Positions 5,555 through 63,999 of a stretch of 64,000 nt of DNA are shown in pieces. This DNA comes from a virus. The stretch covers positions 38,496 to 102,495 of the IMG/VR virus record IMGVR_UViG_3300021963_009388; one strand, given 5' to 3'. Both the position numbers and the translations under genes were made by a program. The notes under the pieces were generated by a model. It ran no database searches. It was not told where the DNA came from and saw only the letters and a list, made by a program, of their open reading frames with translations. Every line of letters starts with the position of its first letter. Position 1 is the first letter of the stretch.

Positions 5555-6265
5555 TTGAACACGACCGTATGCTGTCTTCTTTACGGTGACTTTCCAGAGC
5601 TTGCTGATAGGTGCTTAAAGCCTATTAGCAAGCTTCTTAGCTCCGGCGTTCAAGTAAGGGCTGGCTGCAACGAAGTCTCCACTACCGTAAAAGGAATAGT
5701 GGAGACCTTGCTTCCAGCCTCACTTGGAGCCAAAGTATGCTATGAGTCCCCGCAGATATTCAAGTACCCAATGATGTCTAAGCTATTTAAGCTTGGGCCT
5801 ATAGACACTGACTATATAATGTGGTTCGATGATGATAGCTACATAACTCAAGCCGACCCTATTCAATGGCTTAAAGACTTAGAATCCTTTATGAAGTCCA
5901 GCTCCGCTGATATGGCAGGAGCAACCTATGTTGTATCCACAGTTGGTTCGCAGGATGAGTGGAGACGTCTCCACTGCAGCTGGTACAGCAGCAATAACTC
6001 TAATAGGCAATCTAGGTTTGCCACTGGCGGCTGGTGGATTATAAAGTCATCTATCATAAACAAATATGGCTGGCCCCACCCTATGCTCAAGCATAGAGGG
6101 GGAGATGTTCTTCTAGGGGAACTTATAAGAAGCCAGGGCCTCAAACTGGCCAACTATAAAAAAGGAGTAGCAATTAATGCTGATGATAACGGAAAGGAGT
6201 CTGCATCAAAGCGCAGAGGCTACGACGAGCAGCCCATAGGCGTAACTATGAAAAGAAAGGAATAA
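5555..6265 (+). CDS. glycosyltransferase, GT-A fold (GT2-like)
   Basis: YIMWFDDDSY (DxD motif), FATGGWWII and GGDVLLG; TTG start after AGGAG. Confidence 0.65.
   Translation: MNTTVCCLLYGDFPELADRCLKPISKLLSSGVQVRAGCNEVSTTVKGIVETLLPASLGAKVCYESPQIFKYPMMSKLFKLGPIDTDYIMWFDDDSYITQADPIQWLKDLESFMKSSSADMAGATYVVSTVGSQDEWRRLHCSWYSSNNSNRQSRFATGGWWIIKSSIINKYGWPHPMLKHRGGDVLLGELIRSQGLKLANYKKGVAINADDNGKESASKRRGYDEQPIGVTMKRKE
5959..5974. repeat. 16-bp palindrome GTGGAGACGTCTCCAC, copy 1 (perfect; 18 bp with flanks)
   Basis: Read directly; inside a CDS, encoding WRRLH. Confidence 0.95.
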
Positions 6266-6271
6266 GTAACA

Positions 6272-7192
6272 ATGACTAGCAGGAAGCTAACAGATGAAAA
6301 AGTTAAAGTGTCAGTCTCAAAGATCCTCAATACTCGCAAGAGAGTTACTGATGCTCTCTACGGTTTCTGCGGTAATATTCTTAGTAGTGATAGCCTTGAC
6401 GGGGCTACATCTGCTTTGGCGTTTTGTATTCCCAAGTCATGCATAGACTTTCACTGGGTTCAGAACCAGCTCTTAACGTTTGTAAGAAAACCTATTCTAC
6501 ATCACCACGTAGATGCCATAGCTTCTAAGCTAGCTGGCAACCTAGATCTTATACTAGCCGGTGAAACCGTAGGCGACAATGAGTGGCGCATAAGGTCAGG
6601 CTGGGGGTTAGTAAGAATACTAAACGTAGAAAAGGCCGTAAGAACATTTAAAGACGGCAACTCCCAAAGAGGGGCGTGGATGAGCCTTGAAGTTATGAGC
6701 GGCCCTGCTAGCTCATTTAAGTATAAGAAGTTTTGGTCTTCCGATATGTTCAACTACGCTAAGTTCAGAATAGGCTTTAGCTACCCAGGGGATAGCTGCA
6801 AGTATCCTTATGCTGAAGAGTCTAACCTAACTAACTTCTACTTTTTAGGTATGTTTGATCATTTGGCATTGAGAGATGGCCCCGACTACTCCGACTTTCT
6901 ATGCACTGACTATATTGTGTCTAAGAACAGAGAGCTTCTAAGAAATAGGTTAAGAAGCATTCATGTTAATTCAGGGTTTCAGTGCCCTAGAAATTATCCT
7001 AGAAACATAAACTGTCACAAGTGCCCTGCAGGCTTGAATGAGTGTGAAGCTGCGACTCATGCTACAACTTATGTAGAGGACGACTGTAAGCATTGCAAAA
7101 GGCCTAGCTGGTTTAGCCCAGACAACATGGATAAATGCGTGGATTGCGTTACTTCTAGCAATTTAAAATTAATAGTGTTAGATGATAACTAA
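6272..7192 (+). CDS. hypothetical protein with C-terminal Cys-rich (Zn-binding) region
   Basis: CHKC, CKHC and CVDC motifs near the C-terminus. Confidence 0.7.
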   Translation: MTSRKLTDEKVKVSVSKILNTRKRVTDALYGFCGNILSSDSLDGATSALAFCIPKSCIDFHWVQNQLLTFVRKPILHHHVDAIASKLAGNLDLILAGETVGDNEWRIRSGWGLVRILNVEKAVRTFKDGNSQRGAWMSLEVMSGPASSFKYKKFWSSDMFNYAKFRIGFSYPGDSCKYPYAEESNLTNFYFLGMFDHLALRDGPDYSDFLCTDYIVSKNRELLRNRLRSIHVNSGFQCPRNYPRNINCHKCPAGLNECEAATHATTYVEDDCKHCKRPSWFSPDNMDKCVDCVTSSNLKLIVLDDN

Positions 7193-7268
7193 AACCAACT
7201 TATCTATTGTGTATATAGCATTCCGAATGTAAGCTTACGCTTTTAGGCACTATACTTATGGGGGATAA

Positions 7269-61612: not shown

Positions 61613-61714
61613 GTGAAAATTGAACAGGTGATCCTATATGGCCTATGCGCGGCCACAATGGTTTTGCCCGCATACGTCGGGATCTGCATACTCAGGGTCG
61701 CCCTGGGTATGTAA
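61613..61714 (+). CDS. 33-aa single-TM peptide (MKIEQVILYGLCAATMVLPAYVGICILRVALGM), cassette 8 cargo; not in the ORF track
   Basis: GAGGTGA RBS, GTG start; stop abuts the terminator. Confidence 0.55.
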   Translation: MKIEQVILYGLCAATMVLPAYVGICILRVALGM

Positions 61715-61764
61715 AAAGAACCTCCAGTCCTTCGGGACATGGAGGTTCTTTTTTTAGCTATCAG
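61713..61764. terminator. bidirectional terminator plus T7-AGCTATCAG (cassette 8 / nrdJ)
   Basis: AAAAAGAACCTCCAGTCC-TTCG-GGACATGGAGGTTCTTTTTTT. Confidence 0.85.
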
Positions 61765-61767
61765 ACA

Positions 61768-63999
61768 TTACAGTTCGCAGGCCCCGCTAGTGCAAGCATA
61801 GGTCTGAGACGACTCGGTATGGTCGGTCTTCTCATACCTAGAGAGCTTAGCCCAGTCTACTTTTGGAAACGTCTCCACTCGGCTGTTGTACTCCGCTTCA
61901 GTTATCTCTTCGTAAGGAGTTCCGGTGTAAGTGCCGTTATCTCTAGGAAGAAAGCTAAGTCCTGATATAGCATCGAAATTTGTGTAGACCCAGTAACCTG
62001 TAGAAAGCCATTCTTCTGGCTCCACATAGATAGTTGCCGATACAGAATGCTCTGCCCAGTTCTTTTTCCAACATAGCCAGTTGTCTAATTGATCAATAGC
62101 TGTTTGATCATCTTTTGTTACAGCCCCTGCTGGAGCAGCGCAAGGAAACTCAAAACATATAAGCGAAGGATCTTCAGGAGCTTGAATCCAAGGCACTCCT
62201 GCGTCAACCAACATATGAGCTACAGGGCTATCCGCGCGCTCCCTCACTCTACGAATGTAGTGGGATGCAAACCTGGCATGTATACCAGAAGAGCAGCCAA
62301 ACATAACCGAGCTATTTCCAGAAGGCTTTACACAGGTATCTGAAGTAGACCTATTTATGCCAAACCTTTCAGCGTACTCAGCGTTAGTCTTTCCTACGAT
62401 GGCTCTTAGCTTTTTAAGAAGTTCTTCTCTGCCTTCCGCACCTGGCCTTAGAAGAGGGCAGTCCATCTGCCCTGTGATGTCCACTCCTAGCAATCTTTCT
62501 TCTTGGCAATTGTCTTTCCATTCTCTGCGAATGTATTTGAAGTCAGTAAGGCAGCTTTGCATAGTGCCAAAAATAGCCGCTACTTTTACCTTACGCTTAA
62601 GACTCTCAACTGTGTCGTTCTCTCTAGCTATGACTATAGATAGATTACAGAACTGGTATGGTCTTAGAATAATTTCTGCGCAAGGGTTTGTTCCAAAGTC
62701 TCTAGCTTGCCTTCTCTCAGGAAGGCTTCTAAGAACACCGTCTCTATTGAAGATGCCTCTTTCTCCAGAGCCGCTCTTTGCTAAAGAGAGCCACTCTTCC
62801 ATAAAGTCTATAGCGTTAGGCTTAACGTTATAGACAGCAGAGTTGTTAGCCATAGACCTATGAATAGAGTTCTGCCACCAAGCTCCTGACTTTGCTCCTC
62901 TCATATCTGTAGAGTCAAGGTCGCTGAGGGATATCTCACTAGCTCTGCGAACTCCGCCTACCTGAACTATTTTACCGGTCATGCATGCTAAGTCATGGCA
63001 GTCTATGTCCGATAATGACTTACCCTGTCTAGACAGAATAAGAGTCCTAGCAAATTGAAGTAAGTCTTTTAGAGGCCCAGGCCCGCTAGCTCTTCCGCCT
63101 TTGATGCTTAGCCTAGCCCCTGCAGGTCTTACTTTACTAAAATCAAACTCTATGTCTTTACCGTTGAACCAAGCATCCATTCCTGCGAACAGAGCATCGC
63201 ACCAACCTTCGGTGGTGTCCATGACACCCATTTTTGCTGCAGGCTTTCCTATCTGCCTTCTTACAGCTGGAAGTTGTTCGACATACTTTCGCTCTACCGA
63301 GAACCCGGCCCCAGTACCCTGCATAAGAATATACAGCAGCTCACTAAAAGACCTAATATCACAAAGAGGCATGTAGCTGCAGTTGTAAACTCCTACATGG
63401 CATCGGTCTAGCGCAGGCCCTGCCATTTGAATAACTCGCATGGCTGGAGTGGCGTCCATTCTAAGAAGAGATTCTTTAAGCTCTTTTATTTCTGGCTTAG
63501 TAAGCTTTTCACCAAACGCCTGCTTGGTAAAGAAGTCCATTACTCGGTTAACACACTCTCCCCATGTTTCTCTTCTGCCTAGAGTTTCGTTCCACTTGGA
63601 GAACTTACTAATGAACTGGTAATACTGAAGAGCAGATGGAAAGTATATAGAATCTTCTTCGACTAATTTTCTAAGCTCAGCGTCAACCGGGTGAGCTATT
63701 CTTTCCTGCCTTCTTTTTTCTTTAAACAGAGTATATTGCTCTGCTGCTTCAAAGTGGCCCAAAGCCCAAAGCTGCTGAATTACAAGACGCTGCAAGGACT
63801 CTACCCCTATGACCTCTTCGTCGCTTTTTTTATTAAGAATATTGACAACTGCCTTTGACACTTTAATACCGGCCACCTGAGCTTCTTCATCTGTGCTTTG
63901 AAGGCCATTCTTAAAGCACCTTTCTATTGCCAATGCTATTTTCTGTACATCAAAGTCATCTACACTTCCGTTTCTTTTTTCTACTTTCTTTACACCTAC
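61768..63999 (-). CDS. nrdJ: class II (adenosylcobalamin-dependent) ribonucleotide reductase with N-terminal ATP cone; 5'-truncated
   Basis: Frame open to the window end (VEKRNGSVDDFDVQKI, ATP cone); YNCSY, TNPCAEI, FCNLS, TCVKPSGN and C-terminal CTSGAC. Confidence 0.9.
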   Translation of the reverse strand, partial: VGVKKVEKRNGSVDDFDVQKIALAIERCFKNGLQSTDEEAQVAGIKVSKAVVNILNKKSDEEVIGVESLQRLVIQQLWALGHFEAAEQYTLFKEKRRQERIAHPVDAELRKLVEEDSIYFPSALQYYQFISKFSKWNETLGRRETWGECVNRVMDFFTKQAFGEKLTKPEIKELKESLLRMDATPAMRVIQMAGPALDRCHVGVYNCSYMPLCDIRSFSELLYILMQGTGAGFSVERKYVEQLPAVRRQIGKPAAKMGVMDTTEGWCDALFAGMDAWFNGKDIEFDFSKVRPAGARLSIKGGRASGPGPLKDLLQFARTLILSRQGKSLSDIDCHDLACMTGKIVQVGGVRRASEISLSDLDSTDMRGAKSGAWWQNSIHRSMANNSAVYNVKPNAIDFMEEWLSLAKSGSGERGIFNRDGVLRSLPERRQARDFGTNPCAEIILRPYQFCNLSIVIARENDTVESLKRKVKVAAIFGTMQSCLTDFKYIRREWKDNCQEERLLGVDITGQMDCPLLRPGAEGREELLKKLRAIVGKTNAEYAERFGINRSTSDTCVKPSGNSSVMFGCSSGIHARFASHYIRRVRERADSPVAHMLVDAGVPWIQAPEDPSLICFEFPCAAPAGAVTKDDQTAIDQLDNWLCWKKNWAEHSVSATIYVEPEEWLSTGYWVYTNFDAISGLSFLPRDNGTYTGTPYEEITEAEYNSRVETFPKVDWAKLSRYEKTDHTESSQTYACTSGACEL
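61863..61878. repeat. 16-bp palindrome, copy 10 (TTGGAAACGTCTCCAC, 2 mismatches)
   Basis: Inside nrdJ, encoding VETFP on the minus strand. Confidence 0.65.

Follow-up and report, generated by a model that had tools for sequence, protein, structure and literature searches.

A 16-bp palindrome recurs at even intervals along the genome of an uncultured freshwater phage, and its copies are a real signal at the level of the DNA. We analyzed this palindrome in a window of 64,000 nucleotides, comprising positions 38496 to 102495 of a 102,495-bp IMG/VR viral contig (IMGVR_UViG_3300021963_009388; here G000). Searching for the word GTGGAGACGTCTCCAC with up to two mismatches recovered 10 copies in the window (5 perfect, 4 with one mismatch, and 1 with two mismatches; Table 1), compared to none in the 100 dinucleotide-preserving shuffles used as background (0/100). 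The full contig contained 15 copies at this threshold, and zero further copies appeared at three mismatches, indicating that true sites stand cleanly apart from the background. When every palindromic 10- and 12-mer was scanned, this motif was the only one enriched (9 to 11 copies versus ~0.07 or fewer expected). These results bear out the starting point of our analysis, a sequence-only reading of the window: each of the ten copies was found again at the position and in the mismatch class that it had reported, the gaps between copies were correct, and the count against background that it had proposed separated the sites from chance.

Gaps between sites were more even than random in this contig (coefficient of variation [CV] of 0.46; P = 0.0015). 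The same regularity was observed in a 190-kb relative, G001 (CV 0.47; P = 5 × 10−5), and in two others (CV 0.51 to 0.52). Across five genomes, the CV ranged from 0.37 to 0.59, with P values from <5 × 10−5 to 0.005. Among the structural genes of G001, for instance, nine successive sites were separated by gaps of 4.2 to 9.4 kb.

Seven of the window's copies lie within open reading frames (ORFs), six on the plus strand and one in a minus-strand ORF, and occupy all three frames, being translated as WRRLH, VETSP/VEASP/LETSP, GDVST, or VETFP. The remaining three lie between genes, beginning 2 to 32 nt past the upstream stop codon. Such placement, in every frame and outside genes as well, shows that the constraint is on the DNA rather than the protein, as previously proposed; consistent with this, sites are kept far better than their flanks in relatives (see below).

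Of the explanations considered, we tentatively favor one in which the evenly spaced sites, hereafter the lattice, provide docking points for a symmetric reader that is specific to each clade and whose action extends along the DNA without cutting. Each site would be recognized on double-stranded DNA by one reader with two-fold symmetry, presumably a homodimeric protein or a dimeric ribonucleoprotein, which most likely travels with the phage family (that is, is phage encoded) and would bind without cleavage. Selection would hold the sites within a bounded distance of one another. Such bounded spacing suggests an activity of limited range along the DNA that covers the entire ~200-kb genome.

Conservation within the clade and across the family

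The exact 16-mer was present in ~15 other IMG/VR contigs. With up to two mismatches allowed, relatives of 68 to 190 kb carried 25 (190 kb), 20 (181 kb), 21 (137 kb), 14, 12, 12, 11, 10, and 9 copies, and a density of ~1 per 7 kb was found in at least 10 related contigs. A reversed control pattern gave 0 matches in every relative counted. Across 33 aligned site pairs from diverged relatives, sites were 92% identical compared to 68.5% for their flanks. Even where relatives aligned at only 65 to 74% identity, the sites were intact and the flanks scrambled, and nearly all mappable sites were retained (10/10 and 12/12 in two comparisons). The sequence-only reading had proposed a check of synonymous-site conservation in relatives, and the DNA of the sites is indeed conserved there. 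Turnover was also observed: G002 has lost a site that G001 and G003 carry where a 497-aa gene begins and has a new one 3.1 kb off, such that the spacing was preserved.

Synteny with the 181- to 190-kb relatives shows that the contig is only about half of a ~200-kb genome, with a ~100-kb structural half missing. CheckV estimated the contig to be 87% complete. G002 is 88% identical to this contig and circularly permuted relative to it. A near-identity search with 10 kb against a cultured-phage collection returned no match. When a 14-mer of the motif was searched in 185,579 prokaryote genomes, the 120 stretches listed held scattered single matches at chance level and no host lattice.

To place the motif in a wider context, we used the 309-aa major capsid protein, which is 31% identical to its counterpart in Salmonella phage Arash. 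A capsid search identified ~100 uncultured contigs, mostly 150 to 235 kb, and the GC content of the family ranged from 41% to 69%, probably reflecting a range of hosts. Whole contigs from several clades were subjected to the same unbiased palindrome scans, revealing four further clades with one dominant private palindrome each, at 1 per 4 to 10 kb. G017, a near outgroup, carried KTCTTANCGNTAAGAC at 22 sites in 192 kb (control, 0; CV 0.56). In G011, a complete 224-kb genome of 69% GC, a 24-bp palindrome around AAAACCGGTTTT occupied 35 sites (CV 0.37; P < 5 × 10−5). G012 carried a 24-bp palindrome around AAAAACGTTTTT at 22 sites (CV 0.59), and G013 to G015 carried AWAGATATCTWT, with 50 sites in a complete 204-kb genome (CV 0.57). 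The frame GT....ACGT....AC is common to this clade and G017, the difference lying at positions 3 to 6. Arash itself, a cultured distant relative of similar size that served as a negative control, had no such motif, indicating that the scan does not yield one by default.

Site positions were not conserved between clades (Kolmogorov-Smirnov P = 0.47; 88 sites placed by protein-guided mapping). A candidate site shared across clades ~2.8 kb upstream of the capsid gene was rejected, since the positions are actually ~180 nt apart. Density and evenness are therefore conserved, while sequence and place are clade-specific. The private palindromes of sister clades point to a co-evolving reader, and the pairing of conserved density and evenness with changing sequence and place is what a co-evolving reader of limited range would produce.

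Symmetry and gene context of the sites

Alignment of 54 sites from three genomes on the sense strand extended the motif to 18 bp, A-KTGGAGACGTCTCCAM-W, or A-[G/T]TGGAGACGTCTCCA[C/A]-[T/A] when written with its degenerate ends. No other conserved element was detected within 80 nt on either side of the palindrome, which supports the docking interpretation. The outer bases of the 16-mer (G or T on the left, C or A on the right) varied independently (Fisher P = 1.0); the pair-restoring T..A combination was not enriched, and no compensatory double changes were seen. Taken together, these patterns suggest that half-sites are read on duplex DNA. A mirror-image change was found at one site: the one-mismatch copy at 21670 carries A7G, and its counterparts in G001 (112362) and G004 (71334), compared by gene synteny, carry T10 to C (GACGCC) in the same orientation, read as LEASP. 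The dimeric reader proposed from the sequence alone accordingly fares well in one respect, in that independent half-sites fit a two-fold symmetric pattern, but a protein reader was searched for and none was found (see below).

Independent half-sites also disfavor a hairpin in RNA or single-stranded DNA that would act as a processing, antitermination, or priming site. Nearly all genes lie on one strand, so that all sites would be transcribed, the 18-mer would fold at −9.6 kcal/mol, and the sense-strand flank is asymmetric at position −1. However, predicted RNA-hairpin energies over the motifs ranged from −9.7 to −1.9 kcal/mol, with sister motifs folding weakly (−1.9 for CAAAGATATCTTTG and −3.8 kcal/mol in G017). 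In addition, a loop does not need a palindromic center, and cleavage within coding regions would destroy messages. We regard a hairpin as exceedingly improbable. There was likewise no signature of restriction avoidance, since GACGTC and the other central hexamers are not depleted outside the sites.

We next considered the position of sites relative to genes. In this clade, ~15 to 20% of sites are noncoding versus ~5 to 7% expected, yet sites lie no nearer the next gene start than random positions do. In G012, intergenic sites make up 68% of the total, and the median distance to the start codon that follows is 34 nt; this bias could reflect function or the high coding cost of an A6/T6 palindrome. 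Such enrichment (2- to 3-fold in noncoding DNA) would be expected if the sites were promoters, or start-containing activator sites, for a phage multisubunit RNA polymerase and sigma-like factors, co-evolving with them as promoters do in the T7 group. The family does encode a fused beta/beta' multisubunit RNA polymerase and sigma-like pieces, the motifs are clade-specific, and some sites directly precede a ribosome-binding site. Nevertheless, a perfect palindrome would fire in both directions, whereas nearly all genes lie on one strand; 80% of this clade's sites are intragenic; positions relative to genes are not conserved between clades; and no core gene keeps an upstream site across all clades. 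Over the last 10 kb of the window, none of the four sites present coincided with a predicted sigma-70 promoter or intrinsic terminator. A promoter function is thus very unlikely in our judgment. The related claim that the sites are not simple operators holds for this clade, but it does not speak against roadblocks of the stoperator type.

Table 1. Copies of the palindrome in the window, with gene context and state in relatives
Positions	Match	Location	Reading	Relatives
5959..5974	Perfect	Inside 236-aa ORF	WRRLH	Intact in G001 and G004; flanks ~66% identical
14288..14303	Perfect	Near 3' end of 245-aa ORF	VETSP	Kept in G001 and G004 despite directly adjoining indels
21670..21685	One mismatch (A7G)	393-aa ORF	VEASP	
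27290..27305	Perfect	1071-aa ORF	GDVST	Kept in G002
35125..35140	Perfect	227-aa ORF	GDVST	
43121..43136	One mismatch (G1T)	Conserved N-terminal part of 1303-aa ORF	LETSP	Identical in G001, G002, and G003
53230..53245	One mismatch (C16A)	Intergenic; AGGAG and ATG of 81-aa ORF follow directly		Homology with relatives starts exactly here
57227..57242	One mismatch	Intergenic; 2 nt past stop codon of upstream variable gene		
57924..57939	Perfect	Intergenic; 5 nt past upstream stop, 5' of conserved leader and PhoH gene		Relatives' homology starts here
61863..61878	Two mismatches	In minus-strand ribonucleotide-reductase-like ORF		Lineage-specific: in G002; absent at aligned place in G001 and G003

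Several neighbors of the sites were themselves of note. The 236-aa ORF over the first site belongs to a DxD-motif family and, judging by sequence, looks like a glycosyltransferase. Among G001, G002, and G003, the first ~185 codons of the 1303-aa ORF (42662 to 43226, which includes site 43121) share 88 to 92% identity, but the remainder of the gene is different; the N-terminal part looks like a portable module carried on different cargo proteins. A leader of ~50 nt between site 57924 and the PhoH start (57940 to 57991) is almost identical in four genomes that are otherwise 70 to 88% alike, and it may be a structured 5' untranslated region or a small RNA. Finally, an inside-out version of the motif, with the right half, a 6-nt loop, and the left half (GGTCTCCA-ATTCTG-TGGAGACC), lies at 59961 to 59982 within a 96-aa ORF.

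Homology boundaries, gene content, and the search for a reader

A number of observations weigh against docking sites for a noncutting reader. Flanking bases were asymmetric on the sense strand, with A at −1 in 48/54 sites and T at +16 in just 34/54; this asymmetry could indicate a directional process or arise from coding constraints. Three sampled family genomes (G016, G018, and G019) had no clear lattice. At three intergenic sites (53230 and 57924 in the window and 19055 in G001), the upstream genes of four genomes, which are unrelated to one another, stop right at the site, where homology then begins. Overall, 2 to 3 of ~50 homology boundaries fell within 10 nt of a site, compared to 0.2 expected. 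These boundaries hint at recombination or breakage at the sites, which they fit at least as well as they fit binding, although they could also arise where the genome is compacted around an element that cannot be lost.

One process that would leave such boundaries is recombination between phages, with the sites acting as joints for cassette exchange in the manner of PeSL or attC elements. Beyond the three boundaries, a variant strain represented by viral-metagenome contigs diverges at 57225 and 57856, that is, around a 214-aa gene between sites 57227 and 57924, with the first divergence 2 nt before the site. At several accessory-cassette boundaries (106711, 107241, and 109366 in G001; 97655 in G003), a T-run, AGCTATCA.., the palindrome, and TTAATC-N16-CATAAT follow one another, so that the palindrome abuts promoter-like sequence. 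Some indels in Cluster O mycobacteriophages are likewise flanked by repeats (PMC4351075). However, a junction was found at only 3 of ~25 sites per genome, most sites lie in conserved core genes, structural genes included, where no exchange was seen, and the even gaps of the structural region are not predicted by exchange. We therefore consider it highly improbable that the sites exist as joints.

The strongest rival, unlikely though we judge it, is that a symmetric phage nuclease cuts or nicks the DNA at the palindromes. Such cleavage would account for why the gaps are bounded, why gene context is ignored, and why breakpoints lie at sites. In one version, a terminase of the lambda gpA type would cut nowhere but at these cosN-like sites, once to begin packaging and again at whichever site comes next when the head has filled, in which case spacing must stay below the spare capsid capacity. 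In a second version, breaks would initiate recombination-dependent replication. Lambda cosN is partly symmetric and is nicked on both strands by the symmetric gpA terminase, with head filling governing the cos cut that ends packaging. Long exact palindromes that are indifferent to gene context are typical of dimeric nucleases, and even spacing, a small largest gap (5 to 8% of the genome in G001, G011, and G015), and freely placed sites are the prediction for a signal read by a motor. The family encodes a gpA-type large terminase (TerL; PF05876; E = 4.5 × 10−11; G001 170827 to 172692), Rad50- and Mre11-like proteins, a UvsX-like recombinase, and a superfamily 2 (SF2) helicase. Permuted genomes should assemble into circles, and the complete assemblies did so, with overlaps of 73 and 127 bp. 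The proportion of boundaries at sites also exceeds expectation, as described above. On the other hand, none of the checked assembled-contig ends fell at a site, the largest gaps reached 11 to 12% of the genome in G017 and G012, and compaction around a must-keep site fits the breakpoints as well. Lambda has one cos per genome, unlike the ~25 sites per genome here, and we know of no phage with many cos sites.

Further points against docking concern the reader itself. The sequence-only reading had likened the sites to parS or Noc-binding sites (NBS), which are 14- to 16-bp palindromes, sometimes intragenic, read by a dimer. We searched six-frame translations of 10 family genomes, of which CheckV rated three as 100% complete, for ParB_N (PF02195). 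No match exceeded the threshold, whereas the control search found the domain in 11/14 control genomes; the single weak match had an E value of 0.024, and a very diverged fold could escape such a search. In addition, no tyrosine integrase (PF00589) was found in the four family genomes searched. There was no sign of lysogeny or of a plasmid-prophage lifestyle and hence no obvious need for a global silencer. In a Pfam inventory of the 185 ORFs of G001, run in two halves, the best 25 families shown per half included no helix-turn-helix (HTH) or ribbon-helix-helix domain except sigma-factor pieces, and no repressor-type HTH. PHROG and PDB searches of small core proteins were empty.

These results bear directly on the proposal that the sites load a CTP-dependent clamp of the ParB family (ParB, Noc, or KorB-like) for segregation, membrane tethering, or long-range silencing. 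The 16-bp palindrome is parS-like and often intragenic; at 16 to 18 bp, the site agrees with the palindrome length of 13 to 16 bp by which such sites are recognized; and the spacing is on the order of ParB spreading distances. KorB provides a precedent, with dispersed palindromic OB sites on plasmid RK2 from which it slides up to 1.5 kb (PMC11790492). Nevertheless, the sites here tile the whole genome and do not cluster at one locus. By comparison, parS sites mark the origin region. Given the absence of ParB_N from ten genomes despite positive controls, the assignment to ParB/parS or Noc/NBS fails, and segregation as a prophage finds no footing in genomes that show neither an integrase nor plasmid-prophage signs. 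We accordingly give little credence to a ParB-family clamp, although the sites may still work in a way that resembles parS or NBS, and the parS/NBS reading as a whole is supported only in part.

Other searches for the reader were likewise negative. In addition to the polymerase, sigma-like, terminase, recombination, and SF2 helicase genes described above, the family encodes a PolA-UDG fusion, a class II ribonucleotide reductase, a DnaB-like helicase, PhoH, and CsrA. Pfam and PHROG searches with ~60 single proteins revealed no convincing site reader, and profiles of two core families matched nothing among PDB sequences. No match was obtained for the fold of a 108-aa core protein that bears a CxxC motif, and no gene tracked the presence or absence of the lattice.

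One lead came from structural modeling of a 304-aa core protein encoded between the SF2 helicase and Rad50 (G001 147003 to 147917, minus strand; ortholog at 25507 to 26421 of the contig, upstream of the window). A homology search returned only unnamed proteins. The model (predicted local distance difference test [pLDDT] score of 86.5) comprises an RNase-H-like domain and a helical domain, and its best structural match was TIGR-TasR (9mty_B; Z = 11.1; root mean square deviation of 5.2 over 230 aligned residues), followed by IS110 bridge recombinases (Z = 7.6 to 7.8). Catalytic acidic residues were not conserved. A recent report describes catalytically dead TasR proteins that, as RNA-guided dimers, bind both strands of DNA and repress transcription (bioRxiv 10.64898/2026.09.09.750476). 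On the strength of this match and that report, the 304-aa protein is a candidate reader and may be an RNA-guided or structure-specific DNA binder. It is a lead only, because a simple search for a guide with two direct half-site copies 4 to 34 nt apart found none outside a coding region, and because the protein is also present in G018 and G019, which have no clear lattice. Separately, G016 contains three tandem arrays with a period of ~62 bp (13587 to 13773, 29003 to 29064, and 30347 to 30470), whose unit contains the palindrome CCACGCGTGCGTGG; these arrays could be guide-RNA-like.

Two bolder readings we rate as rather improbable. In the first, the lattice would act as a ruler read by a machine moving along the DNA: a gpA-type terminase able to cut only at the palindromes would quantize headful packaging, which could begin at any site and would finish at the next one met once the head had filled, with selection holding each gap under the spare capacity of the capsid. 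In the second, the reader would be RNA-guided and would be the catalytically inactive TasR-like core protein, in which case a clade could switch its motif by changing the guide RNA.

Precedents and significance

The closest published case is that of the Cluster O mycobacteriophages (Corndog and relatives), which carry >30 dyad-symmetric 17-bp repeats, about one-third of them in coding regions and most of them away from promoters (PMC4351075). These phages are nontemperate, and the authors predicted a dimeric reader and assigned no function (PMC4351075). The resemblance is considerable: tens of copies of one dyad word, in a nontemperate phage, partly intragenic and untied to promoters. The Cluster O repeats, however, consist of 7 + 7 bp with a 3-bp spacer and occur at ~1 per 2 kb in ~70-kb genomes, clustered toward one genome end, whereas the palindromes described here are contiguous (12 to 24 bp), evenly distributed over ~200 kb, and replaced from clade to clade.

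Two other systems show how dispersed sites can act at a distance. KorB, as a dimer, binds many identical short palindromes (OB) on the IncP plasmid RK2 and acts at a distance by sliding (PMC11790492). Our case resembles this one in having identical short palindromes scattered over a single replicon, but KorB is a ParB-family CTPase on a plasmid, and here no such domain was detectable and the phage is lytic. OB sites, moreover, sit relative to promoters rather than evenly. The stoperators of Cluster A phages (bound by L5 gp71) number 20 to 30 per genome, are spread and mostly off promoters, and have a subcluster-specific consensus that co-evolves with the repressor (PMC6550527, PMC9283540). Stoperators lack symmetry, point along the direction of transcription, and are bound by a monomer, and they belong to temperate phages; in contrast, the sites here are palindromic with weak flank asymmetry only, and we found no integrase, ParB domain, or repressor-type HTH within the searches described above. 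Dispersed dyad sites read by dimers may be regarded as precedents for docking (PMC4351075, PMC11790492). A docked reader might act as a clamp sliding from the site, as a roadblock that stops polymerases, or as a bridge that anchors loops, the likely outcome being genome-wide control of transcription or of DNA organization. In our literature search, no account of regularly spaced palindromes in jumbo phages was found, and the motif itself appeared solely as a cloning primer.

This phage family keeps ~20 to 50 exact, evenly spaced palindromes per genome at a coding cost and rewrites the motif in each clade, a pattern that marks an important cis-acting system whose reader co-evolves with it. The changes in motif from clade to clade constitute a ready data set for identifying that reader by co-variation. 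Its identification would reveal a new way in which large phages organize, silence, or package their DNA, or else a new family of highly specific binders or cutters of long DNA sites with naturally diversified specificities.

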